Virus record (IMG/VR): IMGVR_UViG_3300017613_000573
Coordinates: 1-35,632 of that record
DNA: 35,632 nucleotides
Reading direction: 5' to 3' (one strand)
From: a virus
A program made the position numbers and the translations under genes. The notes under the pieces were generated by a model. The model was not told the origin of the DNA. It was given only the letters and a program-made list of their open reading frames with translations, and made no database searches. Position 1 is the stretch's first letter, and every line of letters starts with the position of its first letter. Of this stretch, positions 8,034-35,632 are shown piece by piece.

Positions 8034-8062
8034 TTGACAAAAATAGAAAGAGCAACGATAAT
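8034..8062 (+). promoter_or_regulatory. Near-consensus sigma70-type promoter: TTGACA-17 nt-GATAAT, pointing rightward
   Basis: TTGACA at 8034-8039, an exact 17-nt spacer, and GATAAT at 8057-8062. It lies in an otherwise non-coding 555-bp gap. Confidence 0.5.
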
Positions 8063-8087
8063 TGCGCTTAGCAGCAACGATAATTGC
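8051..8087. repeat. Two identical 15-bp direct repeats AGCAACGATAATTGC (8051-8065 and 8073-8087), 22-bp period; operator- or iteron-like
   Basis: Exact duplication read directly from the sequence. Each unit has GCAA-N6-TTGC dyad ends. Copy 1 covers the -10 of the 8034 promoter and copy 2 covers about +3 to +17. Confidence 0.7.
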
Positions 8088-8195
8088 TTCTACTTCTGTC
8101 AAACAGTCCCACACCTCGCAAGTGAAAGACTACAGGAATTTTCCCCACAGTCAATTCCAAAACTTGAAGGCCCCTATCTGGGGCCTTCTTCTATT
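8070..8195 (+). ncRNA. Candidate antisense small RNA of about 120 nt (promoter at 8034 to hairpin at 8167-8187)
   Basis: The predicted start is about 7 nt after GATAAT. The interval has no ATG and no RBS-linked start codon. It ends at an 8-bp GC-rich hairpin followed by CUUCUAUU. Confidence 0.3.
8167..8187 (-). terminator. Hairpin terminator (AAGGCCCC-5 nt-GGGGCCTT) 7 nt downstream of the stop of 8194-9162; possibly bidirectional
   Basis: Perfect 8-bp stem. The minus-strand downstream sequence is CAAGTTTTGG. Confidence 0.6.
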
Positions 8196-9162: not shown

Positions 9163-9171
9163 TATGGCCTC

Positions 9172-9783
9172 CTATTTATTTAATACTTTTAAACAAAGAT
9201 TTCTCTCGGCCTCCACGGCCTTGAGTTGTTTTTTTAACGTATCAATCACCAATTGATCCGGGGTTATCCTAATCTGTAACATAGGGAGATCAGGATGATA
9301 AAAAACTAAATCGCACCAGGGGCGGCCAGTTACAAACATTTGGCCCTGTACCTGGGCGATATAAGTGGTCGGGGCGCGGCCGTGTTTATCGAAATACATC
9401 AGAGTTTTAACGTGCTCTTTAGGGATCTGGCATTTAAACTCGACCAGGCCAGGACCAGCTAATCCGTCTGGGCTGCAGCCGTACTGCATTAAGTCATTCG
9501 TGATAAAACCGACTTGCTCCACGTCGATATCATTATCCATTGAATAGGCCATGCGGGCAGACTCCTCGAGATCCTTGCCTCGATCCGTGTATTTATTACC
9601 CATAAAGCCATCCAGGACCTTACCGGCGTATTTTTCAGCGGCCAGAGCCATGGCATACTCAGGCATGGATTTGCTCACGGCGCCTGTACTTGTAACTAGT
9701 TTTGAAAATTCGCTGGCTGTAGGTATCCCGGCGCGTAGTGTGTGCCATTCTTCTGAGCCTTGTTCAACGTCGTGTATAATCAT
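9172..9783 (-). CDS. YqaJ-like (lambda Exo-type) recombination exonuclease
   Basis: The N-terminus QGSEEWHTLRAGIPTASEFSKLV is typical of the YqaJ family, and PDG...VEFKC matches the PD-(D/E)xK core. ATGA overlap with erf. Confidence 0.8.
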   Translation of the reverse strand: MIIHDVEQGSEEWHTLRAGIPTASEFSKLVTSTGAVSKSMPEYAMALAAEKYAGKVLDGFMGNKYTDRGKDLEESARMAYSMDNDIDVEQVGFITNDLMQYGCSPDGLAGPGLVEFKCQIPKEHVKTLMYFDKHGRAPTTYIAQVQGQMFVTGRPWCDLVFYHPDLPMLQIRITPDQLVIDTLKKQLKAVEAERNLCLKVLNK

Positions 9784-10553
9784 TCGCTTTTAGCCTTAAT
9801 TGCCATATTTAAACGGGTGATAACTGCCTCATAATTGCACTCATAGAGATCGTCGAAGCGATCCACTTTAAACGCCTCCTTTAACCAGCTCATAACCCTG
9901 GCCTCAGGGAGCTCGTTTTCTTTGATCATGGAGTCAATTTTTAATAACTGCTCCTCGCTCAACGTTTCAGGCAGTGGTCCGCCAGCCGCGTTCCCGTCGT
10001 CGTCGTTGCCTGTATTAAGATTAAATATTAAACAGGTTAGATATCTACGGCCGTAAGAATTAGCTGAACCGGTCCCGTGGGTTTTAGTTTTGTTAACCGC
10101 GCCCTTAATACCTGTAAGATCCAGAGGCGTATCAGTAAAATAATGCTTTGAAAAGCCTGAGGAGTGCATCACGTCGCATGTAACGCGAACATGATCAGCC
10201 AATGGGCTCTCAGCATTGCCGAAAGATAAAGCGAATCCCTCAGCCGTATAAACCGGCGTTATGGTTTTAATGATTACTTTCAAGTCTGAATAGCTAGAAT
10301 TTGTTTGATCATTCTCTCTATTTTTCACAATGGCCGGCATTTTTTTCTGAACCTCGACCATTGATATCGAGTAAGCTTGTTCAGCCTGGCGATCTAATAC
10401 GCGCTCCTGCATGTTTAAAAGTTTTTCCAGGCTATCTGCATCTACGCCATTTTCTAGGGCGGTCTGCAGCATACCCATAACCTGAGCCTCAGGAGAGAGC
10501 TGTTTTCTGCGAGCTCTCTTTTTTGGTACTACTGATAAATTATTTTCTGTCAT
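9780..10553 (-). CDS. erf: ERF-family single-strand annealing protein
   Basis: Motifs SYSDLKVIIKTITPVYTAEGFAL, VTCDVMHSSGF and THGTGSANSYGRRYLTCLIFNL, followed by a DDDG tail, match the ERF pattern. Confidence 0.8.
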   Translation of the reverse strand: MTENNLSVVPKKRARRKQLSPEAQVMGMLQTALENGVDADSLEKLLNMQERVLDRQAEQAYSISMVEVQKKMPAIVKNRENDQTNSSYSDLKVIIKTITPVYTAEGFALSFGNAESPLADHVRVTCDVMHSSGFSKHYFTDTPLDLTGIKGAVNKTKTHGTGSANSYGRRYLTCLIFNLNTGNDDDGNAAGGPLPETLSEEQLLKIDSMIKENELPEARVMSWLKEAFKVDRFDDLYECNYEAVITRLNMAIKAKSE

Positions 10554-10555
10554 TA

Positions 10556-10810
10556 TTAACTCCAGTGGTTATCATTACGCAGCTCGACCAATTCTAAAAA
10601 GCAAATTTTCGAGCATGTAATATCTGTTATATCGGGCTTGATGTGTGTTTCGATCCATACAGGCCTCTTACAGATCCGGCACTCGTATAGATCGTGGTTG
10701 TGTGATTTTGGGTAATATCCAAAATGATCCTTATATCTCAGGGACCATAATAAATATCTAACATTGTTATTTTGTGGGCTATTGCCCGTAAGAATTTTAC
10801 TTATATTCAT
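10556..10810 (-). CDS. Small Cys-containing (zinc-ribbon-like) protein
   Basis: GAGGT RBS. CRICKRP...CSKIC gives a pair of CxxC-like motifs. Confidence 0.55.
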   Translation of the reverse strand: MNISKILTGNSPQNNNVRYLLWSLRYKDHFGYYPKSHNHDLYECRICKRPVWIETHIKPDITDITCSKICFLELVELRNDNHWS

Positions 10811-10829
10811 CTCTACCTCGCCCGGTTAT

Positions 10830-10858
10830 TATATAGCAGATTGCTAGAAAGAGCCATA
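10830..10858 (-). promoter_or_regulatory. Extended -10 promoter of the early-box type (TGCTATATAA on the minus strand)
   Basis: The motif CTAGCAATCTGCTATATA lies about 20 nt upstream of the RBS of 10556-10810. The -35 is weak. Confidence 0.4.
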
Positions 10859-10881
10859 TTTCAGGCCCTTAATTCCCTTAA

Positions 10882-11457
10882 CTATCTTTGACAATTATAT
10901 GAAGTTTGATAAACCGGCTTACCTTCATAGGGTGACGCACTAGCATAGCTAGCAATTCTTACAGAGTTATACTGATTAACTCGTTTAAGCATTCCGTCGC
11001 CATCATTCAAAAATTTATCTTTTACCGGCTTTAAGTAATCAGCTCCAAAATCAGAACTATCAACCATTGCGCCGATCGCGCGGATCTTCACGGACTTTTT
11101 GCCAACCAGCTCAACTACTTGATAAAAATCAACATTAGTTTGATCATAGCCCCAGCTGGAATACAAGATATCTCCAACTTTTAGTGACATTTCAAAATTA
11201 TTTTTAGCTTCCTGTCTGGCTTTCTTCTCCTGAATCCTTCGCTCCAGATCATCCAGGTATTTATCGACGTACTCCTGGCGACGCTCCTCGCTTTTGAATC
11301 TCAGGAAAAAATCAGGCTTTGATCGCTTACCGCCAAAACCCTTGGCGACTGGACCGTTATCACCATCAGTCAAGTAGACCTCAGCCTGGACGCCTTCGCG
11401 CTCAACCTTTTCAGAATACTTACTAGGAATAAAAAACTCTCTGGACATTCTCATCAT
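10882..11457 (-). CDS. Hypothetical protein (191 aa)
   Basis: The leader TTGCGAGGTgtgaATG is the same leader motif as at 7638. There is no recognisable domain. Confidence 0.65.
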   Translation of the reverse strand: MMRMSREFFIPSKYSEKVEREGVQAEVYLTDGDNGPVAKGFGGKRSKPDFFLRFKSEERRQEYVDKYLDDLERRIQEKKARQEAKNNFEMSLKVGDILYSSWGYDQTNVDFYQVVELVGKKSVKIRAIGAMVDSSDFGADYLKPVKDKFLNDGDGMLKRVNQYNSVRIASYASASPYEGKPVYQTSYNCQR

Positions 11458-11489
11458 TCACACCTCGCAATTAATTAACCCACGCCTCT

Positions 11490-11518
11490 AATATAGCAAA
11501 TAGCTATACAGATTGCAA
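11490..11518 (-). promoter_or_regulatory. Strong sigma70-type early promoter: TTGCAA-17 nt-TATATT with extended TG and a TATAGCTA spacer palindrome
   Basis: The minus strand reads TTGCAATCTGTATAGCTATTTGCTATATT. It overlaps the 3' end of 11504-11719. Confidence 0.6.
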
Positions 11519-11719
11519 CAGTTTTTTATTCGCCTCTTTAATGGCCGCTCTTAATGATGGTAATTCCTTGGCTATTCTCATGCTGTTATAATAAACATTG
11601 AAGAATTTACCGTACTTGGCGATCGTATAGCCCTCGCATACTTTTTTAGGATAGGGGTATTCTCTCCAGCGGTTGTCCCAGAAACCGCCACCAGGTAATA
11701 AAGCTTTTTTAAATTTCAC
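11504..11719 (-). CDS. Hypothetical protein (71 aa)
   Basis: GTG start with GGAGGG 6 nt upstream. No motif recognised. Confidence 0.55.
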   Translation of the reverse strand: MKFKKALLPGGGFWDNRWREYPYPKKVCEGYTIAKYGKFFNVYYNSMRIAKELPSLRAAIKEANKKLLQSV

Positions 11720-11721
11720 AA

Positions 11722-12147
11722 TTAACCCTCCAAAATTGCGACCGCTTTCGCGTATCGTTTGGCCATGCTGGCCGGCATATCATAGTCTCGACTCGGATCC
11801 ATGTTATCGGCCAAGTCTGCTCGTTTTATCTTAATAGCGATATCGTTCCCGCTATCCTTAACTCTTTTAATAAAATCCAAATAAACATCACCAGGCTTTT
11901 TACTCACGATCACCACGGCGTTAACCACTTCGCCAGGCATACCCATAGCGATCAAGTCCTCAGCCTCCAGCTCACTATCCTCGATCGCGTCGTGTAATAA
12001 AGCCGCGGCCTCATAATAGGATCCATAACCAGAAACAGCCCTGGCCACGCTCAAAGGGTGATAGATATAATCCACGCCGGACTTATCTACCATGCCCCCA
12101 TAAGCAAAAGTAGCGATCTCAAAAGCTTTAATAACTAAATAATCCAC
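11722..12147 (-). CDS. HD-domain small alarmone hydrolase-like protein (SpoT/Mesh1-type (p)ppGpp/(p)ppApp pyrophosphohydrolase fold)
   Basis: Motif order YIYHPLSVARAV ... AALLHDAIEDS ... VVNAVVIVSKK ... IKRADLADNM matches the H..HD..D metal ligands and spacing of SpoT/Mesh1 hydrolase domains. It is 141 aa with no synthetase domain. Confidence 0.75.
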   Translation of the reverse strand: MDYLVIKAFEIATFAYGGMVDKSGVDYIYHPLSVARAVSGYGSYYEAAALLHDAIEDSELEAEDLIAMGMPGEVVNAVVIVSKKPGDVYLDFIKRVKDSGNDIAIKIKRADLADNMDPSRDYDMPASMAKRYAKAVAILEG

Positions 12148-12297
12148 TTATTCACCACCAACGTAATAACAATCAAAATCATTAACCCCGGAACCTGAAA
12201 ACTTACCAGATCCGGCGTATTCATTAACTGGGTATTTTTTAAGGTAGAGGCTCTGAGCTATTGCAAACAGAACCAGGCAAGAAAAGAAAACAACCAT
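12148..12297 (-). CDS. Small membrane protein (49 aa), first gene of the leftward early operon
   Basis: GGAGG lies 5 nt upstream of the ATG at 12297. The N-terminal TM segment is MVVFFSCLVLFAIAQSLYL. The longer ORF-track start at 12336 would overlap the promoter. Confidence 0.5.
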   Translation of the reverse strand: MVVFFSCLVLFAIAQSLYLKKYPVNEYAGSGKFSGSGVNDFDCYYVGGE

Positions 12298-12326
12298 ATC
12301 AACCTCCGAATTAACCCCACGGCTTA

Positions 12327-12355
12327 AATATAGCAATTAGCTATACAGATAGCAA
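12327..12355 (-). promoter_or_regulatory. Leftward early promoter: TTGCTA-17 nt-TATATT with extended TG and a TATAGCTA palindrome
   Basis: The minus strand reads TTGCTATCTGTATAGCTAATTGCTATATT. It is 23 nt upstream of the GGAGG of 12148-12297. Confidence 0.65.
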
Positions 12356-12374
12356 GTAATCAAATAATTTAATT

Positions 12375-12412
12375 TAGCCTATTGCTATATTTCATAGCTT
12401 AATGCTATATTT
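12375..12412 (+). promoter_or_regulatory. Rightward early promoter region: two tandem 18-nt boxes TAGCyTAwTGCTATATT (12375-12392 and 12395-12412)
   Basis: TTGCTA (12382-12387), an 18-nt spacer, then TGcTATATT (-10 at 12406-12411). The first box is itself an extended -10. The ATG at 12420 is only about 1-2 nt beyond the predicted start site. Confidence 0.55.
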
Positions 12413-12419
12413 ATATCCC

Positions 12420-12620
12420 ATGAATATTATGAAAAGCTGGCTTAGACGCCACACAAAAGAAGAAAACCAGGCCTTTGCCGATAAGATCGACACATCACTG
12501 ATGTATCTCGAGCAGATCGGCATGGGTATCCGGACGCCTTCGCCTAAAATGGCCGAGAAATTGGCCGAGGCGAGCGATAACGAGCTGGATAAGATGGGGC
12601 TTTTATTCCCGAATGGCTAA
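12420..12620 (+). CDS. Cro/YdaS-like HTH DNA-binding protein, probably translated from a leaderless or near-leaderless mRNA
   Basis: ENQAFADKIDTSLMYLEQIGMGIRTPSPKMAEKLAEAS has an HTH-like layout. No SD precedes the ATG at 12420 or 12429. It is the first gene after the rightward promoter. Confidence 0.6.
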   Translation: MNIMKSWLRRHTKEENQAFADKIDTSLMYLEQIGMGIRTPSPKMAEKLAEASDNELDKMGLLFPNG

Positions 12621-12807
12621 TAATTCCGAGGCTTATCGCTGGGAGTGTCTAGCTAGAACAGTCTGCAGGATGCCTGGAAAAGAAAGGCGAAAAGCATTTA
12701 TAGCTCGCTGGCGAAAGCGGCATGGTGTCGAGTCAGCTATTAAATTAAAAACCCTGGTCCGCGAACAGTGGGCCCTATTACATCCAAAGGAAAACAATAA
12801 TGTTTGA
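12613..12807 (+). CDS. Hypothetical basic protein (64 aa)
   Basis: ATGGCTAA overlap with the upstream stop. No motif recognised. Confidence 0.55.
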   Translation: MANNSEAYRWECLARTVCRMPGKERRKAFIARWRKRHGVESAIKLKTLVREQWALLHPKENNNV

Positions 12808-13363
12808 TATTAAATTCCGCACCCCTGAGATTCAGGAAAAAGGCCTCAAAGGAGATAGTTTAGTCTTAGTGGCTGATATCCCTCAAACCGTTAAATTATT
12901 CCAGGGTCAGCGCCTTAAAGTTAAAACCGGCGTGGCCATGAAAACGGATAACCATGCTTTCGCCATGGCTCTACGCGGTAATAACGAAATGGGCCTGGTG
13001 CTGGCTTGTGGTATGGAGCTCGTTAGCGACCAGGATGGCGAGGTCGAGATCCTGATGTGGAACCGAAACGCCCAAGGCACACCTCGAATGATCGAGATCA
13101 CCCCAATGATGCCTATTGCTCAGCTGTTATTTATGCCGGCTGCAGTTATTGAATTGCCAAAGGTAGAACAGGAAGAGACTGAGACTCAGCCAGAAACAGA
13201 AAAAACCCTGGAGCAGCTTGGCATTAAAGATCTGAGGGCTATTTTGGATATGAAAGCCCAGGACCAAGGTATAGAAACGGCCATGTATAAGCAGAAGGAT
13301 ACTAAATCTGAGCTTATCGCTTTAATTCGTGGATCTGGTAACGATGGCCAAGAAACAGGATAA
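12800..13363 (+). CDS. Divergent dUTPase-fold protein with a C-terminal HeH/Rho_N (SAP-like) motif
   Basis: Degenerate dUTPase motifs are present: KTGVAM, ALRGNNEMGL, ELVSDQDGEVEILMWN, PIAQLLF. The C-terminus TLEQLGIKDLRAIL...KSELIALI is HeH-like. Confidence 0.55.
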   Translation: MFDIKFRTPEIQEKGLKGDSLVLVADIPQTVKLFQGQRLKVKTGVAMKTDNHAFAMALRGNNEMGLVLACGMELVSDQDGEVEILMWNRNAQGTPRMIEITPMMPIAQLLFMPAAVIELPKVEQEETETQPETEKTLEQLGIKDLRAILDMKAQDQGIETAMYKQKDTKSELIALIRGSGNDGQETG

Positions 13364-13649
13364 ATATACCAAAAGCTCCAGGGGTAAACCGTGTCTGATC
13401 CGGATCCCTGGCTATTGTAAGCCGGCCCCTGAAAATGAAACTACGGTTTTATGCCATCTTAATGGCGGGGGTATGGCTTCAAAAAATCTAAATATACACG
13501 CGGCCGATGGCTGTAATGTCTGCCATGATATTGTCGATGGCCGAATGCAGAACACCGGCTTTACACCTGAGGAGATCGAGCTCATGTTTCTGCAGGGCGT
13601 TATCCGTACTCAGATAAGAATGGTTAATGATGGAACCTTAAAGCTTTGA
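13344..13649 (+). CDS. YbcO-like (DUF1364) putative nuclease
   Basis: RGKPCLIRIPGYC...ETTVLCHL...GCNVCHDIVDGR matches the conserved Cys/His pattern of E. coli prophage YbcO. Confidence 0.75.
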   Translation: MAKKQDKYTKSSRGKPCLIRIPGYCKPAPENETTVLCHLNGGGMASKNLNIHAADGCNVCHDIVDGRMQNTGFTPEEIELMFLQGVIRTQIRMVNDGTLKL

Positions 13650-13990
13650 ATCACTGGGAGGATAACGAACAAACAGCTCTTTTTCAGTGGGCGGCTCATT
13701 ACAAGGAATTGCGCTGGCTCCATGCGATCCCTAACGGTGGTAAGCGGCATAAAAAAGTAGCCATAAAGCTTAAGGCTCAGGGATTAAAGTCTGGCGTATT
13801 GGATATATTTTTGCCTAAAGCTCGCCAGGGGTTCCATGGGTTATATATTGAGATGAAGGTAGGAAAAAATAAATTAACCGCTAACCAGGCCGATTTTAAG
13901 GCCGAGGCCGATGCTGAGGGATATCGATGTGAGGTATGTTATTCCTGGGATGAGGCGAGAATTGTAATTAAGGATTACATGAATTTATGA
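13646..13990 (+). CDS. VRR-NUC domain nuclease
   Basis: EQTALFQW...HAIPNGG...LKAQGLKSGVLDIFLP...GLYIEMKVGKNKLTANQ matches the VRR-NUC PD-(D/E)xK pattern. TTG start overlaps the upstream stop. Confidence 0.8.
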   Translation: MNHWEDNEQTALFQWAAHYKELRWLHAIPNGGKRHKKVAIKLKAQGLKSGVLDIFLPKARQGFHGLYIEMKVGKNKLTANQADFKAEADAEGYRCEVCYSWDEARIVIKDYMNL

Positions 13991-14202
13991 ACGATAATAC
14001 TCTCAACTGGGTTATACCCGCTATCACTCTAGGCTATGCAGTAGTCCAGGACCGTGACGGGCGCCTGAGGTTTTTCTCCGAGGATGTTGAGATCGTACAC
14101 AGGAAAGGGGGCTGGATCGGGCGGGATAACGTGGATCCAGATCGAGAATATTTAGACTTGCCTCATGCCCTGCAGGGTGAGGCCTGGAGGTTGCCGGAAT
14201 GA
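13987..14202 (+). CDS. Hypothetical protein (71 aa)
   Basis: Coupled start (ATGA). No motif recognised. Confidence 0.5.
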   Translation: MNDNTLNWVIPAITLGYAVVQDRDGRLRFFSEDVEIVHRKGGWIGRDNVDPDREYLDLPHALQGEAWRLPE

Positions 14203-14519
14203 CAGATAAAATGCCAGATTTACTTCCTTGTCCGTTTTGTGGTGATCAGCCTCGTTCTTTCCATGATAAAAGTTCGGATTATGAGGCGCATTGGAGCTGG
14301 TCAGTAGTGTGTGAATGTGGTGGCGAAGTAAATCATGAATTTGATACAGAAAAAGAAGCCATAGAATGCTGGAACACCCGAACCCCCGCTGACCTTCAAG
14401 CGCTTAAGGAGAGGGTTATGAAAGAGGTTGAGAATGAATTAAGCAAGTACGATATACCTTTATTGGCGACAATAAAAGCTCAACAGGCAATCAACAAAGC
14501 ATGGGAGGGGATGGAGTGA
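14199..14519 (+). CDS. Lar-like restriction-alleviation family protein, paralog 1
   Basis: LLPCPFCG...VVCECGG...EKEAIECWNTR matches the Lar (Rac prophage) zinc-ribbon pattern. Confidence 0.7.
   Translation: MTDKMPDLLPCPFCGDQPRSFHDKSSDYEAHWSWSVVCECGGEVNHEFDTEKEAIECWNTRTPADLQALKERVMKEVENELSKYDIPLLATIKAQQAINKAWEGME
14370..14418 (+). repeat. 49-nt near-identical repeat, copy 1 (tggaacacc...gaccttcaagcgcttaaggagagggtta)
   Basis: Compared by eye with 14690-14738. The last 28 nt are identical and there are a few mismatches before that. The copies are 320 bp apart. Confidence 0.8.
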
Positions 14520-14851
14520 GTGAATTAAAACCGTGTCCGTTTTGTGGCTATGAGTTACCGGATTATGAGGGGCTTATAAAAGCTGTAAATGATGAAGATG
14601 GGATATTACAACATCCTACAGGTGTTTGTTGTTCAAATTGTGGATGCTATCAAGTTGGGGGCGAAACAATAGAAGATGCAATCAAAACATGGAACACCAG
14701 AAACCCCGCCGACCTTCAAGCGCTTAAGGAGAGGGTTAAGGGGATGAAGAAGCCTGAAACCTGTGGAGCAGGGGATATTGATTGTGGAGGCAAATACAAT
14801 CAAGCCATTAACGATGTACTTGAAGCAATCAAAGCATGGGAGGAGAAATGA
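14501..14851 (+). CDS. Lar-like restriction-alleviation family protein, paralog 2 (start may be the GTG at 14516)
   Basis: LKPCPFCG...CCSNCGC...IEDAIKTWNTR. It shares the ADLQALKERV segment with paralog 1. Confidence 0.7.
   Translation: MGGDGVSELKPCPFCGYELPDYEGLIKAVNDEDGILQHPTGVCCSNCGCYQVGGETIEDAIKTWNTRNPADLQALKERVKGMKKPETCGAGDIDCGGKYNQAINDVLEAIKAWEEK
14690..14738 (+). repeat. 49-nt near-identical repeat, copy 2
   Basis: See copy 1. It lies at the equivalent position in the second Lar-like gene. Confidence 0.8.
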
Positions 14852-15075
14852 GCGAATGCGGACATAGTTTATATAACAAAACTTGTGGGTTGTGCAAAGA
14901 GAAACTATACACCCAATCCCAACTAGACGAGCTATTAAGACAGCAGCGAGAGGCTTGCTGGGATTCATTTTGTACTATTCCAAAATATAGCAGGCCAATG
15001 ATGGAAGGTGATTTCTATAAGGCTAAAAAAGCAATCCTAAACGCCAAAGTTTTGGAGGAAGATGATGGGCATTAA
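14848..15075 (+). CDS. Small Cys-rich protein (75 aa)
   Basis: GGGAGGAG RBS and an ATGA overlap. CGHSLYNKTCGLC is a possible zinc knuckle. Confidence 0.5.
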   Translation: MSECGHSLYNKTCGLCKEKLYTQSQLDELLRQQREACWDSFCTIPKYSRPMMEGDFYKAKKAILNAKVLEEDDGH

Positions 15076-15607
15076 ATTAACACAAGAAGCCTTAAAAAAT
15101 CTGCTCGATTATAATCAGGAAACAGGCGTGTTTTTATGGAAAGACAGAGAAGACAACAGGCTAAATTGGAACAAGAGATACTCAGGAAAAGTGGCTGGAT
15201 GTATACGAGATGGACAGTATATAGATATTTCTATCTATAAAAAAACTTATCTGGCTCATAGACTGGCTTGGCTTTATGTTTACGGCAAATGGCCTGATCA
15301 TCAAATAGATCATATTAACGGATTAAAAGCAGATAATAGAATTATTAATTTAAGGGATGTCACACCAGCAGAGAATTGCAAAAATATTTTAATGTCGGAT
15401 AGGAATACATCAGGAATAACTGGTGTTCATTGGACTACTACTGATAAACATTGGATTTCAGTAATAAGAGCAAATAATAACTACATTTATTTAGGCATGT
15501 TTAAAGGTAAATTCGAGGCTTGTTGTGCCCGTAAATCAGCAGAGATTGAATATGGTTTCCATGAAAATCATGGTAATAAGCGAATTAGCAAGGAAGGTGT
15601 GGAGTGA
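15062..15607 (+). CDS. HNH homing endonuclease with an AP2-type DNA-binding domain
   Basis: LAHRLAWLYVYGKWPDHQIDHINGLKADNRIINLR is an HNH_3 motif. SGITGVHW...WISVIRANNNYIYLGMF is AP2-like. The gene is AT-rich relative to its flanks. Confidence 0.8.
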   Translation: MMGIKLTQEALKNLLDYNQETGVFLWKDREDNRLNWNKRYSGKVAGCIRDGQYIDISIYKKTYLAHRLAWLYVYGKWPDHQIDHINGLKADNRIINLRDVTPAENCKNILMSDRNTSGITGVHWTTTDKHWISVIRANNNYIYLGMFKGKFEACCARKSAEIEYGFHENHGNKRISKEGVE

Positions 15608-15894
15608 ATGAAAAAGAATTTAATTTGAAGTGTGCAGATTATATGGGTTACGAATATGTTAGTGCAAACGATGTTCGCGTATTCAGTGAGAGTGAAGATA
15701 CTTACACATTTAACCCCTATTTAGATGCTAATTCACGCAACAAGGTTATTGAGAAGATGCGGATAAATACAGAATGGGGAGCAGGTCAGCAATCATGGTT
15801 ATGCAGGCAATTTGGCAGACATTATCACTGGGATGATTCAATGGAAGCCGCTCAGATAGCCTGTATTACTAAGGTATTGGAGAGTAAACAATGA
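15604..15894 (+). CDS. Hypothetical protein (96 aa)
   Basis: GTGA overlap start. No confident motif. Confidence 0.5.
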   Translation: MNEKEFNLKCADYMGYEYVSANDVRVFSESEDTYTFNPYLDANSRNKVIEKMRINTEWGAGQQSWLCRQFGRHYHWDDSMEAAQIACITKVLESKQ

Positions 15895-16283
15895 GTAGGG
15901 AAGAGGATGATATTCGCCGCAATATCGGAGGCTTTGATAATTTAAGCCAGGACAAAAAAGAAAGGATGCGGATATCCAGGCTTAAGAAGGCCGAGCGGAA
16001 AAAGAAAAAGGAAACACTACGGAAAGCTAATAATTTTGATCATATCCTCAAGGAGTGTATTAAGTTATTTTCAGAGGATAAACTGGACGAGGGTGCTGAG
16101 GCCGTGGCTGAGATGGCGCATATTTGGAAGTCTGGAGGCCAGGATATCAATAGCTTTCTGGACCTGATGAAATATGTAGAGGACCAGGCGATCGAGATAT
16201 CTGGCGCTGGAGAGTTGTTAAGGGTGCGGATCCGTGAGGCCCTGAAAAGGCAAAGGAATAAAACAGGGGTTATAATTCATTAA
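15891..16283 (+). CDS. Hypothetical protein (130 aa), with a basic stretch KKAERKKKKE
   Basis: ATGA overlap start. Unknown family. Confidence 0.5.
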   Translation: MSREEDDIRRNIGGFDNLSQDKKERMRISRLKKAERKKKKETLRKANNFDHILKECIKLFSEDKLDEGAEAVAEMAHIWKSGGQDINSFLDLMKYVEDQAIEISGAGELLRVRIREALKRQRNKTGVIIH

Positions 16284-28333: not shown

Positions 28334-28828
28334 ATGGCAGATCCAGTAACAGCAACAGCGGCGCTATCGACTGCCGGAACCGCAGCAGCAACAACAACAG
28401 CCGCAGGGGTTGGAGCGGCTAGTTTGTTGCCAGGGTTTACAGCGGCTAACGTATTGGCCGGGCTAAGTGTTGCCTCAATGATTCGCCAGGGCCAGGCGGC
28501 AAAAGTAACGGGCCGAGTACAGGCTGATCAAATTAAACAAGATGCTAAAAATAAAGAAGTTAATCGGCGCCGGAGATTAGTCTCCAGCTTGGCAAGTCAA
28601 AACGCTACCCGAGCGGCCAGTGGTATCGCCTTCCTGGAAGGCTCAAGCAAAGAGGCGGCTCTTGAGGATATCCGTACAGGTCGGGGCGCTGGCCTGGTTG
28701 AGACTGGTGGCGCGGAAGCTGCAGCGGCTTCGGCTATATCTCAGGCCGGATATCGACGAACAGGGAGCATGATAGGCGCGACGGCTTCGCTGTTAGACCA
28801 AATAAACAGAAATGTAGATAGGGGCTAA
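28334..28828 (+). CDS. Internal virion protein (Ala/Gly-rich, hydrophobic N-terminus)
   Basis: Its position after gp12-like and its composition resemble T7 gp13/14-type proteins. Confidence 0.55.
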   Translation: MADPVTATAALSTAGTAAATTTAAGVGAASLLPGFTAANVLAGLSVASMIRQGQAAKVTGRVQADQIKQDAKNKEVNRRRRLVSSLASQNATRAASGIAFLEGSSKEAALEDIRTGRGAGLVETGGAEAAAASAISQAGYRRTGSMIGATASLLDQINRNVDRG

Positions 28829-28829
28829 A

Positions 28830-30890
28830 ATGCCACAGGTTAAACGATTTGATCCTACTATAGGAAGTCAGCCGCGGGTCCAGACGGGCGCCCAAGAACA
28901 AATGCTTGGCTCTCTGGCAGACCGTTTAAGAGGTTTTGCCACTCGAGAAAATAAACTGGCGGACATTGAAGCCCAAAAAGAAGGCGAGCGAGCGGGTGAA
29001 GCTGCAGCGGCCGGGCGTGTTGGTGGTGTTGATATCCCTGAGGATATGACTATCCGCGACCAGGCTTTCGCTACCGGCGCAAGGGTCGCTCATACAGCAG
29101 CTATCCAAACTGATATCCGTAAAACGGTGGCGGATCTTGAGCTGAATAACCAGAATGATATCGGTAATTTCAATTTAGAGTTTGATGCCTATAAAGAGGG
29201 CCTGTTATCTGAGGTCGATGATTCGCTCAAACCTATGGCTATCAAGGAAATGGGAGATTATTCTCTCCGCTCTAAGGTTCGTATTGAAAAAACCATGTTT
29301 GATACGGCTCAGACTGAGCAGCTGGCTGCGATTAATACCGCTTCTGATGGCTTTAAAGACGACGCCATGAGCTCAGCCTATAATGGCGACAATGCGCTCT
29401 ATGACAGCAAGCGAGAGGATTATTTCGACTTATTGGACTCGGGGGTGGAAAGTGGGCTCCTGGATAAAAATAAAGTAGAAATCACTAAGCGAGCCTTCGA
29501 GGATGAGGCTCTCATGCGTACAGTAACCGGCGCTTTTGATCGTACAATCGATGAGGAAGGTCTGGACCAGGCTGAGGAGTCTTATAAAAAATTCAGATCT
29601 AAAAAACACCAGGGCGTCGATCCGGATCTAGTTGATAAAATCGATAACAAGATGAAAGCGGCCCTAACCCAGGAGCGGGCTCGAGTTCGCTCTGAGATAA
29701 CTAGGGGTAAAGCGGTTATAACTGCCAGGGAAAAGGCCCTGGATCGCACAGTAAAAAATGCCGAGTATTCCCTAGACCATGGGCGCCAGGTCGAGGGATT
29801 GCCTGAGCTGATCGAGGTTTCACGTGGAACAAAGCACGAAGCCACGCTCAAATCGATACAGATCCACCAGGACGCAGTTAATGAGTTTGTGCAGTTATCA
29901 CCGGCTCAAATGGATGAAACCCTGAATAAACAAAACCAGAAAAAATTATCCGGCGAGCAAGTTCGATTAGTTGAGCGCCTGGAGAAAACTCGAGACTATA
30001 CACGCGGCGAGCTTAAATCTGGCCGAGGCCTGGACCTGGCTCTGGAGCAAAACATTATTGAGGATCTTCCCCCATTAGGTGAGGAGGGAGCTTTCCAGGA
30101 GAGAGCAAGATTATCCAAGGTAGCCGAGGAGCATTATGGTCAGCCTATTTCACCCATGACGGATAGCGAGATCGATGATTTTAAAGCGGGCCTGGATGAA
30201 ATGAGCTCGGATGAAAAAATCGTGGCTATGGGTCAGCTGGCCGAGGGCCTGGGTACTGAGTCTTTACCTCTATTGGAAAACCTGGCCGGAAAGAATAGCG
30301 GGACCTATGCGGTCGCGGGTAGCTTAATGGTTGAGGGTCGAGGTAATTTAGGCCGTGAAATGATCAAGGGCCTGGATGCTCGAGCGGCTTATCCTAAAAT
30401 AATCCCTAAGGATTTTGATACGCAATTTAATAACATCATAAAAACAGCCTATGCCAGGACGCCCAAACAGGTGGAGGTATTGCGCGACTCAATGCGGAAT
30501 ATATACGCCCAAAGAGCGGCCAATAATGGCAATGTTGACGGTGTGGCGGTAGATACCGAGGTATTAACCGGCGCATTTAACGAGGTTACTGGTGGCGTGT
30601 ACTCCCTGGAGGATCAGGGCTCTGGTTTCTTTATGGATAATGCTTATGATATCGAGGCGCCTCAGCCTGGAGTTGATCAAGATCAATTTATCGACTGGAT
30701 GGAAAATATCACCCAGGCAGAAGTTGAGGATATGGGTGCGGGCAGTATCGCGCCTGAGCTTTCAAAAGCTATTAACGATATGAGCGTAAAATTGATTACA
30801 CTGGGCGACGGAAACTATCAGGTAATTAGAAACGGCTTACCCGTGGTTAACGATGACCTAACCCCATTTACTTTAACCTGGCCTAAATAA
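28830..30890 (+). CDS. Internal virion / ejection protein (686 aa)
   Basis: Assigned by position and size. No enzymatic motif recognised. Confidence 0.55.
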   Translation: MPQVKRFDPTIGSQPRVQTGAQEQMLGSLADRLRGFATRENKLADIEAQKEGERAGEAAAAGRVGGVDIPEDMTIRDQAFATGARVAHTAAIQTDIRKTVADLELNNQNDIGNFNLEFDAYKEGLLSEVDDSLKPMAIKEMGDYSLRSKVRIEKTMFDTAQTEQLAAINTASDGFKDDAMSSAYNGDNALYDSKREDYFDLLDSGVESGLLDKNKVEITKRAFEDEALMRTVTGAFDRTIDEEGLDQAEESYKKFRSKKHQGVDPDLVDKIDNKMKAALTQERARVRSEITRGKAVITAREKALDRTVKNAEYSLDHGRQVEGLPELIEVSRGTKHEATLKSIQIHQDAVNEFVQLSPAQMDETLNKQNQKKLSGEQVRLVERLEKTRDYTRGELKSGRGLDLALEQNIIEDLPPLGEEGAFQERARLSKVAEEHYGQPISPMTDSEIDDFKAGLDEMSSDEKIVAMGQLAEGLGTESLPLLENLAGKNSGTYAVAGSLMVEGRGNLGREMIKGLDARAAYPKIIPKDFDTQFNNIIKTAYARTPKQVEVLRDSMRNIYAQRAANNGNVDGVAVDTEVLTGAFNEVTGGVYSLEDQGSGFFMDNAYDIEAPQPGVDQDQFIDWMENITQAEVEDMGAGSIAPELSKAINDMSVKLITLGDGNYQVIRNGLPVVNDDLTPFTLTWPK

Positions 30891-33800
30891 TGCAGAATTT
30901 TGATCGACGTGGCATAGAGGATCTAAACGATGAGGCTCGACGTGTAGGCCCTACCGGGGCGGAAAGCTTTGAGGAGCCTGGTTTCCTTGAGGTCCATAAT
31001 GCTTTCGACAAATATTCTACTAACGAGGCGCGATCAGACTCCGAGGAAATTCTCATGGAGGCGGACGTTAATACCGCGCTCGAGGCTTATGCTCAAGTAA
31101 GGCCTGATATCAGGGATATGATGGAGCCGGATATGGTTACGCCTGGTTATATGGCGCCTAGTTTTTATAAACGCAAAGAATTATTAAAGGCCCTGGAGCA
31201 AGATATCATTCGGGATCAGGCAAAATTCCCGGACGCGGGCCTGTCTACACTGGGCTCATTGATGCAAGCCACCCAGGAAAAAGCAAAAACAGACCGAGAA
31301 ACGGCCATGAGAATGTTTGCCAATGCTCGGGGTATGTCAAAAGCTGGCATTGTCACCGGTGCGGCTACCGGTATTATTACAGATCCTTTAATCCTGGCGA
31401 CTCTACCCATGGGCGCGGGTACAATCTCTGGCGCTGGTATCGCTGGAAACGCATTTAAAGCTTTTAAGCTTGAGGCCATGATCGCGGGCGTATCTGAAAC
31501 CGCTATCCAGCCACAAGTCTACAACTGGAAAAAACAAATAAACTCGCCCTATTCGGTCCAAGAGGCGGCGCTTAATATCGTGGTGGCCATGGGTGCAGCT
31601 GGCGCCATACGTGCTACAGGCTCGACGATCGTGGACGTAGCGGAGCTCAGGGGTGCGGCCAAGTTAAAACGCACCGAGGGCGGTAAGACGGCTAATTCTG
31701 AGGCCGATATCCTGGAGTCTCATGCCGATAATATCGAGGCGGCGGGTGAGGATATTCCTGGACACTTCGACGCAATGGACCAGGCGATCGATCGATTCGA
31801 GGGCGGACGTTCCGCGGACACTGGAAAAACGGCTGAGCATGTTGAGGCGGTGGATCCAAATAGTGTTTTAATTGATGCAGATCAATTTCAGTTTAAAGCG
31901 GGTGCGGATATCGAGGGAGTAACTGAGCGCCTAAAAGGTGTTGAGCGCTGGGATCCAAAGCTGGCCGGTATTGCGATCGTGTACGAAAACAACCAGAGCC
32001 AGCGGTTTATTGTAGATGGCCATCAGAGAGTTAGCCTGGCTAAACGTATGATCGAAGGCGGCCAGGATCCATCCGAGGTAAACCTTAACGCGATAGTCCT
32101 CAGAGAGGGGGATGGCGTTAGCGTTGCCGATGCCAGGCAGATAGCCGCGGTTAAAAATATAGCCGAGGGAACCGGGTCCGCGGTGGATACCGCTAAGATA
32201 TTCAGAGAGCTCGGAGAAACCGGGCTGGATCTTATGCCTAGTTTACCTCCTAAATCAGCCCTTGTTGCTGCAGGGCGCGGGCTGGCTAACCTGGATGATG
32301 ATGCCTTTGTCATGGTTATTAATGGCGTGGTAGACGAGCGCATAGGCGGTATTGTGGGCGAATTGGTCCAGGATGGTGCTGAACAAAAAGCAATTATCAG
32401 CGCTCTGGCTCAGGCTGAACCAGCTAACCAGGTCCAGGCTCGTATCATGGTTAATGATATGAAAGCGGCCGGATTTCAAAAAACAGAGACTATGGACCTA
32501 TTTGGCGGCCAGGAAATAACTGAGAGCCTATTCAAAGAACGTGCCAAAATTGTAGAGCATACACTCAAAAGATTGCGCAATGACAAGGCAACCTTTAAAA
32601 CTTTGGAGCGCCAGGCTTCTGATATTGCCGACGCTGGTAACGTATTAAAACGCGAGGCTAACCTTGCTAGGATTGCTACCGATGAAGAAACGATCGCACA
32701 AATCACAAAATCAGCAAACACAAAAGGGGATATCTCCGACGCGCTCAGCGAAGCCAGCCGCACCCTCAAAGAAACCGGTAACGTCAACCAAGCGACCAAT
32801 GATTTTCTCGGGGCCATTCGAGGAGCGGACGCTGAACAACGTGCTCCGGGGGTTAGAGCTGGCGAGCCTGGACAACCTACAGAAGCAATAGAGTTTAAAA
32901 AAGGTAAGCCGGTCAACTTTGATAATCTCGATGAGGTTGGCCAGAAAGCGGCTGAGATTGAATTTAAAAGCAAACAGGCCGGCCGAAGTGTTGAGGATAC
33001 TTACAAAGTAGCTACTAAAAACCAGGGCCAATTAACTCGAGCAGCTAACTCTATTAAAAAGGAATTAGGTGAGGACGTTGAATACCTAAACCCTGGTATT
33101 AAAAAGCGAGCGGATACTGAGGCCAAGGTCGAGCGTAAGGGTTACGTGGATGCTGGAGAATTGACCGACGTGGTTCGCGGTGGCTTCCTGGTACGCACCC
33201 AGGGCCAGGGCGATCAAGTGGCTGATCTTCTGGCTAAAAAATTCGAGGTTATGGATGAGTCCTGGAAGGTAAACGATGCCGGATACTTCGATCGCAAGGT
33301 TATGGTCCGATTTAAGGATGGCACAGTGGGCGAGATCCAGATCTGGGAGCCGCACATGCTACTCGCTAAAGAGGGCGAGGCCGGTCTTAAGTTTATTCCT
33401 AAAAAATGGATCGATCCAAAACAAAGAGTATTAACTAATACGGCCTCAGGTCATGGCATTTATGAACGTATGCGAGCCTTAATTAAGGACGGACGTGTGA
33501 CGGACGTTAAAGCTTATAGAGCGCTCGAGGCAGAATCAGCGGAAGTTTATGCCGACGCTATGCGATCAGCAAACATGGATTGGAAGACGCTCATAGAAAC
33601 ACGGCGACCAGAATCCAAGATTTCAGCCGGTGAGGCTTTAGACCAGGCGCCTGGTGCGGCGTCAGATTTAACGAAGAAGCCAGAAATACCCTCAGGCGTT
33701 TCAACAACGACGGCGGGGCGGGCTTCCCAGTTAACCCAGGATGTGACTGATGATGGTGTGAAAGGAGTTTCCATACCTGATAATATAGCAAAGGGCGATA

Positions 33801-34030
33801 AGGAAATCAAAGCAAAATACACGGATGAGCCAGTGGATCCAGAAGTGGCGGCCAAAGAGGCGGCCCTGGATCGTGAGATATACGACCAGGATTTAGATAT
33901 CCCGGTCGGGATTAAAACCGACGAGGATGGTAATATCGTCGCACACACCCTGAGCGCTCGAGAGGTTTATGATGATATCGACGGCCAGGCTAATGCGCTG
34001 AAAGAGCTGGAGGGCTGTTTAGTTGGCTAA
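30890..34030 (+). CDS. Large internal virion 'polyvalent' protein: glycine-zipper membrane region, ParB-like domain, RelA/SpoT-like nucleotidyltransferase domain
   Basis: Hydrophobic G/A-rich region (GIVTGAATGIITDPLILATLPMGAGTISGAGIAGN). ParB/Srx-like FIVDGHQRVSLAKRM (about 31850-32130). RSH-like PGIKKRADTEAKVERKG..LTDVVRGGFLV..AGYFDRKVMVRF.DGTVGEIQIW (about 33095-33480). Confidence 0.7.
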   Translation: MQNFDRRGIEDLNDEARRVGPTGAESFEEPGFLEVHNAFDKYSTNEARSDSEEILMEADVNTALEAYAQVRPDIRDMMEPDMVTPGYMAPSFYKRKELLKALEQDIIRDQAKFPDAGLSTLGSLMQATQEKAKTDRETAMRMFANARGMSKAGIVTGAATGIITDPLILATLPMGAGTISGAGIAGNAFKAFKLEAMIAGVSETAIQPQVYNWKKQINSPYSVQEAALNIVVAMGAAGAIRATGSTIVDVAELRGAAKLKRTEGGKTANSEADILESHADNIEAAGEDIPGHFDAMDQAIDRFEGGRSADTGKTAEHVEAVDPNSVLIDADQFQFKAGADIEGVTERLKGVERWDPKLAGIAIVYENNQSQRFIVDGHQRVSLAKRMIEGGQDPSEVNLNAIVLREGDGVSVADARQIAAVKNIAEGTGSAVDTAKIFRELGETGLDLMPSLPPKSALVAAGRGLANLDDDAFVMVINGVVDERIGGIVGELVQDGAEQKAIISALAQAEPANQVQARIMVNDMKAAGFQKTETMDLFGGQEITESLFKERAKIVEHTLKRLRNDKATFKTLERQASDIADAGNVLKREANLARIATDEETIAQITKSANTKGDISDALSEASRTLKETGNVNQATNDFLGAIRGADAEQRAPGVRAGEPGQPTEAIEFKKGKPVNFDNLDEVGQKAAEIEFKSKQAGRSVEDTYKVATKNQGQLTRAANSIKKELGEDVEYLNPGIKKRADTEAKVERKGYVDAGELTDVVRGGFLVRTQGQGDQVADLLAKKFEVMDESWKVNDAGYFDRKVMVRFKDGTVGEIQIWEPHMLLAKEGEAGLKFIPKKWIDPKQRVLTNTASGHGIYERMRALIKDGRVTDVKAYRALEAESAEVYADAMRSANMDWKTLIETRRPESKISAGEALDQAPGAASDLTKKPEIPSGVSTTTAGRASQLTQDVTDDGVKGVSIPDNIAKGDKEIKAKYTDEPVDPEVAAKEAALDREIYDQDLDIPVGIKTDEDGNIVAHTLSAREVYDDIDGQANALKELEGCLVG

Positions 34031-35632
34031 CTTAAAAGATTGTATCGAGGCGGCGGTCGCTACCGGAAAGATATCCGATGAGGAGGCTCAGGACCTTGCG
34101 CGTAGAATTGATCAATATCAAGACCAGATTGTATTACGTGGTGAAGTTTCACCAGAGGCGGCGCTGTCAGAGGCGGAGCAAGCGGTATTAAAAGCTAAAG
34201 GCGCTGAGCTCGCACTCAAAAAACGCCAGGCGCGGCTCCAGGCCGTGGCCCTTCACAAGATAACTAACCAGGTGCAAGATCATCCGGCCGGTGTAAAGGT
34301 CGGCGTTATGTCTCTCCTGGTTAAGGATGTGGGCTCGAGAGCGGCTTATTCTAATATTGACGCCCGTGGTAACGCCATCCTGGCCACATATCATGCCAAG
34401 TTTGCCGAGGCCATGGATAAATTCAGGACTAAAAATCTAGGTTTCTCCCAGGATGTAGATGGCCTCAGGAATATGGTGCGTGAATTATTTAACTCTCCGA
34501 CGGGTGATAGTACGGCTGCCTCAATGGCTAAGATCTGGAGTGATACGGCTGAGATGGCTCGAGTTCGTTTTAATCGTGCCGGTGGTGCTATCCCTAAGCG
34601 TGAGGATTGGGGGATGCCTCAGTGGCATGATCCTGTAAGAGTTTCCAGGGTATCAAAAGAAAACTGGATCGATGGGATTAAGGATAAACTCGATCGTAAT
34701 AAAATGCTCGACGACGCTGGGCTCCCTATCAATGATATGCAGCTTGAGCAGATGCTCGCTCGATCTTATGATGAAATAGCAACCGATGGCCTGGCCTCTA
34801 TGACGCCTGGCAGAATGGGCGGATCTAAACTGGCTAACCGCCATAGGGACCATAGAACACTCCCCTTTAAAACAGCGGACGACTGGCTGGAATACCACGA
34901 TAATTTCGGCCATGCGGACCTGTATGCGACGTTAACAGATCATTTAAGCAGTATGGCCAATGATACAGCCAAGCTCGAAATACTAGGCCCTAACCCTCAG
35001 GCTTCCTGGAGATACATGAGGGATATGGCTTTGAAAGACGCAGAGGGCGAGGGCCTGGATATGGCGCTCCTGGATTCTGTCTGGAGGGTGGTGTCTGGTG
35101 AGGCTAATCAAACTAAATCTGTAAAGCTTGCCGACTTTATGCAGTCGGTTCGCTCGCTCCTGGTGGCCAGCAAGTTGGGCGGCGCCATGTTATCAGCTGT
35201 ATCAGACACGGCTTTCCTGAAAAAAACCTCAAGCTTTAACGGCATACCCGCGACCAAAGTATTTCAACGTATGAGCTCGCTATTAAATCCAGCTAATGAG
35301 GCGGATCGATTAACTGCAGTTAAGATGCAATTAACGGCGGACGCCTGGGCGAATCATGCCCTGGCTGCAAATCGTTTCACTGAGGTTACGGGTGCGGGCT
35401 TCTCGGCTAAGATTGCCGACTTTACCATGCGGGCCTCAATGTTATCAGCCTGGACGGATGCCGGGCGTAAGGCCTTTGGCATGGAGTTCCAGAGCTTATT
35501 AGGTGATATGCAAGGCAAGGCCCTGGCAGAATTGCCTCAAGAGCTCCAGGGCGCGTTTAAACGCTATGGCATAACGGGCGACGACTGGGAGATTATGCGG
35601 GCGACGGATCCATTAACCCATAAAGGAGTTAA
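34023..35632 (+). CDS. 5' part of the wrap-around internal virion protein gene (800 aa in total, continues at 122-914)
   Basis: TTG at 34023 is the first codon after an in-frame TAG. GGAGGG lies 8 nt upstream, in a TTGGCTAA overlap with the upstream stop. The frame stays open to the window end and is in phase with 1-914. (35511-34023+1)+914 = 2403 nt = 801 codons. Confidence 0.75.
   Translation, partial: MANLKDCIEAAVATGKISDEEAQDLARRIDQYQDQIVLRGEVSPEAALSEAEQAVLKAKGAELALKKRQARLQAVALHKITNQVQDHPAGVKVGVMSLLVKDVGSRAAYSNIDARGNAILATYHAKFAEAMDKFRTKNLGFSQDVDGLRNMVRELFNSPTGDSTAASMAKIWSDTAEMARVRFNRAGGAIPKREDWGMPQWHDPVRVSRVSKENWIDGIKDKLDRNKMLDDAGLPINDMQLEQMLARSYDEIATDGLASMTPGRMGGSKLANRHRDHRTLPFKTADDWLEYHDNFGHADLYATLTDHLSSMANDTAKLEILGPNPQASWRYMRDMALKDAEGEGLDMALLDSVWRVVSGEANQTKSVKLADFMQSVRSLLVASKLGGAMLSAVSDTAFLKKTSSFNGIPATKVFQRMSSLLNPANEADRLTAVKMQLTADAWANHALAANRFTEVTGAGFSAKIADFTMRASMLSAWTDAGRKAFGMEFQSLLGDMQGKALAELPQELQGAFKRYGITGDDWEIMRATDPLTHKGV
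35512..35632. repeat. Terminal overlap copy 2 (identical to 1-121)
   Basis: Same 121-nt string as the window start. Confidence 0.9.

Follow-up and report, generated by a model that had tools for sequence, protein, structure and literature searches.

A predicted Tas1-type nucleotide pyrophosphokinase domain in a modular internal-virion-type protein of an uncultivated podovirus that also encodes an Aph1-type hydrolase

The IMG/VR virus record IMGVR_UViG_3300017613_000573 comprises 35,632 nucleotides (nt), all of which were analysed here and are henceforth referred to as the window. As the first-pass annotation of this sequence had stated, the window contains an open reading frame (ORF) of 1046 amino acids (aa) on its forward strand at positions 30890..34030. 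We find that the C-terminal part of its product belongs to a family of RelA/SpoT-fold enzymes whose nearest characterised member is the (p)ppApp synthetase Tas1 (also called Apk1), a type VI secretion system (T6SS) effector of Pseudomonas aeruginosa, and that a separate gene on the opposite strand encodes a predicted Aph1-type (p)ppApp hydrolase. The best explanation, to which we assign a probability of roughly 0.6, is that an uncultivated aquatic podovirus carries the 1046-aa protein inside its virion as a modular, 'polyvalent' protein and would eject a Tas1-type (p)ppApp synthetase into the host, while an Aph1-type antidote is encoded in its genome. This explanation draws on the observed fold, family and catalytic residues of the synthetase domain, on the family and specificity signature of the hydrolase, on the position and recurrence of the gene, and on the cassette nature of the cargo.

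The synthetase domain occupies aa ~690-905 of the protein (32957..33604, forward strand). A comparison with Pfam RelA_SpoT (PF04607), which the first-pass annotation had proposed as a check, gave no match even at E<=10 for the whole protein, the isolated domain or 29 members of its family; the family is too divergent for this Pfam model. In a phmmer search against PDB sequences, the single match was a weak one to Tas1 (E=0.02, aa 699-895). When a profile made from a 29-sequence alignment was searched against the PDB, Tas1 was matched at E=2.4e-19, and weaker matches were obtained to the exported synthetase SaEAS (8vx3, E=2.4e-4) and to RelQ-type enzymes (E=0.013 and 0.16), with which the canonical motifs align in register. 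Identity to Tas1 is ~24%. A single-sequence AlphaFold model was unusable, with a predicted local distance difference test score (pLDDT) of 44, and was superseded by an alignment-based model of the domain with a pLDDT of 95.3 and a predicted template modelling score (pTM) of 0.89. Foldseek comparison of this model with the PDB (50 matches listed, 27 at E<=0.001, all RelA/SpoT homologue (RSH) synthetases) placed Tas1 first, at E=1.5e-8 and a template modelling (TM) score of 0.71 normalised to Tas1; the next best match had E=4.8e-5 and, among the matches listed, those after Tas1 were solely RSH synthetases (RelQ, RelP, CapRel, Rel, SpoT and RelA). The RelA/SpoT-like segment recognised earlier from the letters alone is thus borne out by profile, model and structural comparison.

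Although the 29 family members are diverse (31-48% identity), the residues K738, K746, D760, R763, D789, G798, Y799, D801, G811, E815, Q817 and Y858 are invariant in their alignment, in which the catalytic columns are numbered K59, K67, D81, R84, G119, Y120, E136 and Q138. Most of the invariant columns map onto the roles assigned to residues of the toxSAS enzymes, namely donor-triphosphate binding, the Asp that binds Mg2+, the G-loop Tyr that stacks on the acceptor base, and the Glu and Gln of the EIQ motif (PMC11782079). The four RelA/SpoT motifs picked out previously coincide with the catalytic motifs proper and do not vary within the family. In addition, the D-x-x-R spacing and a C-terminal GH-LYE helix are shared with Tas1 and not with (p)ppGpp synthetases. 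On its sequence and model, the domain is a predicted RelA/SpoT-fold nucleotide pyrophosphokinase with its active site intact, and it is nearer to Tas1/Apk1 than to either (p)ppGpp synthetases or tRNA pyrophosphokinases. A word-indexed homologue search with the synthetase domain returned no match and a related-loci search with the domain alone returned no relative. An exhaustive HMMER search with aa 680-910 retrieved 569 clusters at 50% identity (394 of them at E<=1e-10), mostly within proteins of 1000-3000 aa. These results bear on the explanation in which the synthetase-like domain persists as a relic, structural or inactive, and the hydrolase serves elsewhere, for example against (p)ppApp- or toxSAS-based abortive-infection defences of the host. 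Phage-encoded small alarmone hydrolases have indeed been reported to neutralise toxSAS products (PMC11782079), and most Aph homologues are unlinked to synthetase toxins (PMC10083569), but every catalytic position is invariant over the 29 diverse members and the family extends to 569 clusters, which argues for selection on catalysis and makes a relic very improbable.

The hydrolase gene, whose presence had also been indicated earlier, lies at 11722..12147 on the reverse strand and encodes an HD-domain protein of 141 aa that we predict to be a (p)ppApp hydrolase and a likely antidote or immunity enzyme. Its product matches the '(p)ppApp hydrolase' Aph1 (PDB 7smg, 149 aa) at E=1.3e-20, with aa 4-126 aligned to aa 7-125, and further matches phrog_990 (E=1.9e-38) and the hydrolase region of TIGR00691 (E=1.3e-8); in Pfam the sole match is a sub-threshold one to HD_4 (E=1e-4). 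The adenosine specificity of Aph has been ascribed to D24, R96, D116, R119, K133 and Y134 (PMC10083569), and the equivalents in the window are D21, R95, D117, R120, R131 (with K130 beside it) and Y132. The first four of these fall within the 7smg alignment, while R131-Y132 were placed by eye beyond the aligned block; the pair is kept as [KR]-Y in relatives, so that one position of the signature is a conservative K-to-R change. The closest related contig, IMGVR_UViG_3300033148_001837, encodes a 76%-identical hydrolase as well as a synthetase-bearing orthologue of the 1046-aa protein. In the window the hydrolase is the second gene of a leftward block (small ORF, Aph-like hydrolase, 71 aa, 191 aa, 84 aa, ERF, YqaJ and further genes). 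The divergent intergenic region between the leftward and rightward blocks (12320-12415) contains two similar promoter-like sites, one per strand, of the form TTGCTA-N17/18-TATATT with an extended -10 TG, set among repeated, operator-looking TAGCAA/TTGCTA elements; the count of such sites is not above chance. Because the hydrolase is the second gene of a block that starts at this promoter-like region, we suggest, with low confidence, that it may be expressed early.

Three products had been listed for the synthetase in the first-pass annotation: (p)ppGpp, (p)ppApp, or pyrophosphorylated tRNA. With Tas1/Apk1 as the closest characterised relative and an Aph1-type hydrolase in the same genome, (p)ppApp is clearly favoured as the likely product. 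An active RelA/SpoT-fold enzyme could instead make (p)ppGpp or a SaEAS-like mixture, causing a stringent-like shutdown, or could pyrophosphorylate tRNA at its CCA end as CapRel, FaRel2 and PhRel do, stopping translation. The fold is common to all of these enzymes, CapRel is among the structural matches (E=1.2e-4), the Tas1 relative SaEAS prefers guanylate acceptors, and a 2017 survey assumed (p)ppGpp-like alarmones for the RelA/SpoT domains of polyvalent proteins (PMC5512222). We nevertheless consider a product other than (p)ppApp unlikely: the profile E-value of Tas1 is better by ~15 orders of magnitude than that of any (p)ppGpp or tRNA enzyme, and its TM score also ranks it nearer; in the partner hydrolase the specificity residues are those of Aph, for adenosine, and not of the (p)ppGpp type; and tRNA-targeting toxSAS enzymes are typically under the control of donor-site pZFD antitoxins (PMC11782079), none of which is evident here.

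The gene for the 1046-aa protein lies within the block in which T7-like phages encode internal core or ejection proteins, and we predict its product to be a modular internal-virion-type cargo carrier from the slot that it occupies between nozzle-side genes and a phrog_684 gene. The virion module runs from the small and large terminase genes through portal, scaffold/protease-like and major capsid protein genes to tail tubular A (phrog_394) and tail tubular B (phrog_376), which are followed by genes for proteins of 164, 686 and 1046 aa, an 800-aa phrog_684 protein (p800), a tail fibre and an endolysin. The 164-aa and 686-aa genes (together 28334..30890, forward strand) show synteny with the cargo gene across related contigs, and their products matched no family in PHROGs or Pfam. 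This arrangement recurs: a degenerate DNA motif for GY-D-K...GE[VI]Q-W was present in 77 IMG/VR contigs and, in 54 of these, genes homologous to tail-tube, internal or p800 genes of the window stand beside the synthetase ORF. A middle module is present in 41 of the 54 and absent from the remaining 13. Like gp14, gp15 and gp16 of T7, the 1046-aa protein is encoded after the tail-tube (nozzle) genes and before that of the tail fibre, is large and has hydrophobic segments. The window differs from T7 in having four genes rather than three between nozzle and fibre, and in its cargo, which is predicted to be a nucleotide pyrophosphokinase and not a cell-wall hydrolase; the enzymatic cargo domain of T7 gp16 is a lytic transglycosylase.

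Aligned with its closest relative, a protein of 710 aa, the 1046-aa protein matches over aa 1-323 and aa 668-1046, and aa ~324-667 are inserted. The N-terminal region (aa 1-323, 30890..31858, forward strand) and the C-terminal tail (aa 906-1046, 33605..34030, forward strand) are conserved in orthologues from the same slot, at 43-44% and 59% identity to the closest relative, respectively. Of the glycine-zipper hydrophobic region proposed for aa 150-200, the Gly/Ala-rich hydrophobic character holds, with segments at aa ~151-186 and 221-250 that are borderline for membrane helices (Kyte-Doolittle 19-residue maximum 1.59, Gly plus Ala 31%), but a regular zipper repeat, when looked for in these segments, was not found. 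All 12 complete tails in the family carry a Cys 3-8 residues from the C-terminus (...LEGCLVG in the window, within aa 1031-1046, 33983-34030). Searches of the 1046-aa protein against Pfam (E<=10) and NCBIfam gave nothing, including no MuF or PAAR domain by Pfam, and the carrier is a different scaffold; a processing metallopeptidase was likewise not found in it. Judged from this conservation, the N-terminal region and the C-terminal tail probably form a scaffold that directs incorporation into the capsid and ejection.

The insertion (aa ~324-667, 31859..32890, forward strand) is clean with respect to the closest relative and constitutes a swappable cargo cassette, because orthologues hold a genuine ddrB-ParB domain or an ADP-ribosyltransferase at the same position. 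Specifically, the middle position of IMG/VR orthologues from this slot is filled by ddrB-ParB (PF18763, E=1e-29 to 1e-32, five cases), by ART-PolyVal, or by nothing; the ART-PolyVal match is above the Pfam cut-off in one orthologue (P0016), and two others (L051 and P0021) give sub-threshold ART-type matches. Among 150 representative homologues, ~32 have a middle module of the window type beside the synthetase and ~35 have a bona fide ddrB-ParB there, and in some homologues the modules stand in reverse order. The cassette of the window consists of a conserved FQFK / DGHQR / KNIAEG domain (aa ~320-480) and a helical-looking part (aa ~481-660). In the middle-module alignment the G-H-Q-R core is invariant, the D nearly so, and FQFK and KNIAEG are conserved. 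PHROGs searched with the 1046-aa protein gave two uninformative matches, both in this middle region (phrog_10691 at E=3e-59), and a word-indexed search with the middle-domain profile returned 6 unnamed fragments only.

A ParB/sulfiredoxin-like segment had been read into this region by the first-pass annotation. The DGHQR motif behind that reading, whose Arg is R385, stands, but homology to ParB was not supported. Neither Pfam ParBc nor ddrB-ParB (PF18763) was matched by any of 27 middle-module members at E<=10, six of which made weak contact with DUF1015, a family whose literature offered no further lead; PDB profile searches with the middle module retrieved no ParB or sulfiredoxin structure; and hhalign found nothing against P1 DdrB and was non-significant both against a verified alignment of canonical ParB N-domains (P=0.084) and against 40 verified ddrB-ParB domains (P=0.48). 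The latter two comparisons both set DGHQR on the ParB arginine motif, at chance-level scores. At the level of this motif, a resemblance of the middle module to ParB is a reasonable lead and nothing more. A metagenomic fragment of 604 aa (P0004) combines a middle domain of the window type, a ParB strand-helix-like stretch (...SILDGNSTYAIA...) and the start of a synthetase domain; Pfam recognised none of its parts.

The cargo protein diverges faster than its neighbours: identity to the closest relative is 43-59% for the cargo protein, as against 93% for the capsid protein, 91% for the terminase, 83% for the portal, 76% for the hydrolase and 73% for p800. Giant homologues additionally contain LPD38 and ART-PolyVal, and viral predicted structures in BFVD with the same synthetase fold are named 'Tas1', 'RelA/SpoT', 'DdrB-like domain-containing' and 'ART-PolyVal-like'. 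This domain network is the polyvalent-protein network of Iyer et al. 2017 (PMC5512222), and the 1046-aa protein, in which sequence comparison points to two conserved cargo modules in a late, virion-associated gene context, would itself count as polyvalent. It is conceivable that the synthetase is not delivered at time zero and that the protein or a fragment of it acts in the producing cell or in a lysogen, in superinfection exclusion or competition between phages, with the hydrolase as immunity, as has been discussed for MuF toxins. The authors who described the pair Apk2-Aph1 keep a role in interbacterial antagonism or colonisation as alternatives to co-injection (PMC10083569), the fast divergence of the cargo (43-59% against 73-93% identity) fits an arms race of any kind, and the hydrolase is unlinked to the synthetase gene. 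Such a role is, however, distinctly unlikely in our judgement, given that 54 contigs have the gene inside the virion module, with tail-tube genes on one side and fibre genes on the other, and that a conserved scaffold flanking exchangeable cargo is the layout expected of a packaged delivery vehicle. Moreover, no integrase or repressor was recognised in the window, and a lysogen-based role is therefore without support.

Under the explanation that we prefer, ejection of a Tas1-type synthetase from the virion, we infer packaging, ejection, enzymatic product, timing, physiological effect and benefit to the phage as follows. The conserved N- and C-terminal parts would bring the protein into the capsid as an internal virion component, and it would be ejected into the host, plausibly at time zero as the first-pass annotation had supposed; there the Tas1-type domain would move pyrophosphate from ATP onto ATP, ADP or AMP to give (p)ppApp. 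Tas1 acts by depleting ATP and blocking purine synthesis (PMC10083569, PMC11782079), and synthesis of (p)ppApp by the phage domain could likewise quickly lower ATP, block purine synthesis and so shut down host metabolism. The Aph1-type hydrolase, expressed from what appears to be an early leftward operon, would later break down (p)ppApp and replenish the adenylate pool; additionally or alternatively, it could shield the producing cell at the late stage of infection when the protein is synthesised.

Several considerations weigh against this explanation. Packaging, ejection and activity of the 1046-aa protein are predictions from sequence. The T7-like ejection-protein position assigned by the first-pass annotation holds as synteny, but PHROGs and Pfam revealed no homologue among T7 gp14-16 or annotated internal virion proteins for the 164-, 686- and 1046-aa proteins, nor any match to a protein shown to be ejected, so that the label 'ejection protein' is positional only. 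Homology alone cannot fix the product of the synthetase, and SaEAS, despite its relationship to Tas1, can also make (p)ppGpp. The hydrolase lies ~13-19 kb from the synthetase, on the opposite strand and in a different transcription block, and the two co-occur in at least two genomes, those of the window and its closest relative. A Tis1-like immunity gene is always adjacent in Apk2 systems, and none adjoins the synthetase gene here, where the next gene is that of the 800-aa virion protein (the rest of the genome was not searched for one). Finally, a futile cycle of synthetase and hydrolase would burn ATP, and extra control of the full-length protein would therefore be needed.

A bolder version of the preferred explanation, which we hold only tentatively and would not expect to prove right in full, extends it to a large group of uncultivated podoviruses with a T7-like module. 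In this joint claim, one internal virion protein would serve as a hypervariable cargo rack, loaded with a Tas1-type synthetase together with a middle module of the window type, a ddrB-ParB, an ADP-ribosyltransferase or nothing; in the phage of the window, the ejected synthetase would produce a burst of (p)ppApp at time zero and an immediately-early Aph would reset the adenylates, forming a toxin/antidote timer whose halves are apart in space (virion and genome) and in time.

With respect to the remainder of the genome, the ends of the window (1-121 and 35512-35632) are identical over exactly 121 nt, which makes the window a circular assembly of 35,511 bp; the Joint Genome Institute (JGI) metagenome contig Ga0187366_1318890 is a rotated version of it. 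The 800-aa gene begins at 34023, overlapping the stop codon of the 1046-aa gene, and its 5' part extends to 35632 and continues through the circular junction to 914 (forward strand), as supported by the terminal overlap, the reconstructed ORF and the JGI gene call; its product matches phrog_684 'virion structural protein' at E=5.6e-194. We considered and rejected 34030-35632 as a non-coding region, an appearance that arose because the ORF list leaves out any ORF that runs past an end. Gly-rich hydrophobic segments occur in the C-terminal part of the 800-aa protein, so that it may be another internal or ejection protein. By portal, the closest cultured relatives are Pelagibacter, Methylophilales and Vibrio podophages, at <=36% identity. 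The non-structural genes (6320-16283) include those for an ERF recombinase, a YqaJ exonuclease, DUF1367, a dUTPase-like protein, VRR-NUC and Lar (restriction alleviation), and an HNH endonuclease gene adjoins that of the small terminase. Genes for an RNA polymerase, a DNA polymerase, an integrase or a repressor were not recognised in the window, and the earlier description of the virus as lacking an RNA polymerase fits the ORF sizes, with none above 322 aa outside the virion module. Unusually for a phage gene downstream of the lysis region, an ORF of 135 aa (4439-4846) gives a sub-threshold match (E=3e-4) to a YadA-like membrane anchor domain.

The statement in the first-pass annotation that this is not a characterised system proved too strong, as its kind is already known from toxin/antidote pairs of other phages, with precedents in the polyvalent domains (2017) and in Apk2-Aph1 (2023). 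Tas1/Apk1 (PDB 6OX6), the best profile and structural match to the window domain, shares with it the catalytic residues, the D-x-x-R motif and a C-terminal helical extension, and in both proteins the toxin domain lies C-terminal to a delivery module. Tas1, however, is carried on a PAAR/T6SS module and neutralised by the adjacent Tis1, whereas the carrier in the window is a phage internal-virion-type protein that has no adjacent Tis1-like gene and a domain only ~24% identical. In 2023 the MuF-fused, phage virion-associated (p)ppApp synthetase Apk2 and its immunity hydrolase Aph1 were characterised, with injection left open (PMC10083569), and other MuF-fused (p)ppApp synthetases are known (PMC10083569; Bartoli et al. 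2023). Apk2-Aph1, which occurs with BcTis1 in a Bacteroides caccae temperate phage, resembles the window in fusing a Tas1-type synthetase to a virion-associated protein and pairing it with an Aph-type hydrolase, to which the window hydrolase corresponds in both match (E=1.3e-20) and specificity signature. Unlike the window gene in its T7-like internal-protein slot, Apk2 is carried on a MuF (portal-associated minor head protein) domain; its genes form a tight three-gene cluster, in contrast to the window pair 13-19 kb apart on opposite strands; and the window protein has a second cargo module. Two IMG/VR contigs of a different type, L027 (1450-2004 and 3375-5630) and L059 (21-503 and 1066-3393), have a synthetase ORF of ~750 aa with an Aph-like HD hydrolase ORF within ~1.5 kb, a linked arrangement that resembles Apk2-Aph1 and differs from the unlinked pair of the window.

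Iyer, Burroughs, Anand, de Souza and Aravind described RelA/SpoT and DdrB-ParB domains in 2017 as specific to phage-type polyvalent proteins and sometimes present in one protein (PMC5512222). With these large, multidomain, virion-associated proteins, which combine RelA/SpoT, DdrB-like ParB, ART and LPD domains and shuffle them rapidly, the homologues of the window modules share the co-occurrence of LPD38, ART-PolyVal and ddrB-ParB. The window protein departs from them in that its synthetase is beyond Pfam RelA_SpoT, its middle module is no recognisable ddrB-ParB and no processing metallopeptidase was found; furthermore, the RelA/SpoT domains of the 2017 survey were mainly from spirochaete and epsilonproteobacterial (pro)phages and MuF fusions, and no conserved T7-like internal-protein slot was reported (PMC5512222). 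The synthetase domain was absent from 50,697 GenBank phage records at tblastn sensitivity with two family members as queries, and megablast with the structural half of the window found nothing among GenBank phages. Ruegeria phage 45A6, 'Dunaliella viridis virus SI2' and Prochlorococcus P-SCSP1 phages are the GenBank phage relatives, and these of the middle module only; none of the public sources names the 1046-aa protein. What appears to be new, as far as sequence comparison can tell, is the delivery format, a conserved T7-like internal-protein slot instead of MuF or PAAR, together with a Pfam-invisible synthetase clade, an unlinked antidote on the opposite strand and a second cargo module.

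The locus speaks to a question raised by the authors of Apk2-Aph1, namely whether virions carry and inject the (p)ppApp synthetases of phages, and to what benefit (PMC10083569). It offers a cleaner setting for this question than the prophage MuF toxins: the genome is 35.5 kb, the synthetase lies in the T7-like ejected-protein block, the antidote is in a separate and apparently early operon, and naturally occurring variants either have or lack the second cargo module. The Tas1-like domain is also far commoner in viral metagenomes than Pfam-based surveys reveal. If delivery at time zero is true, nucleotide-alarmone poisoning would join the virion-delivered enzymes of host takeover.

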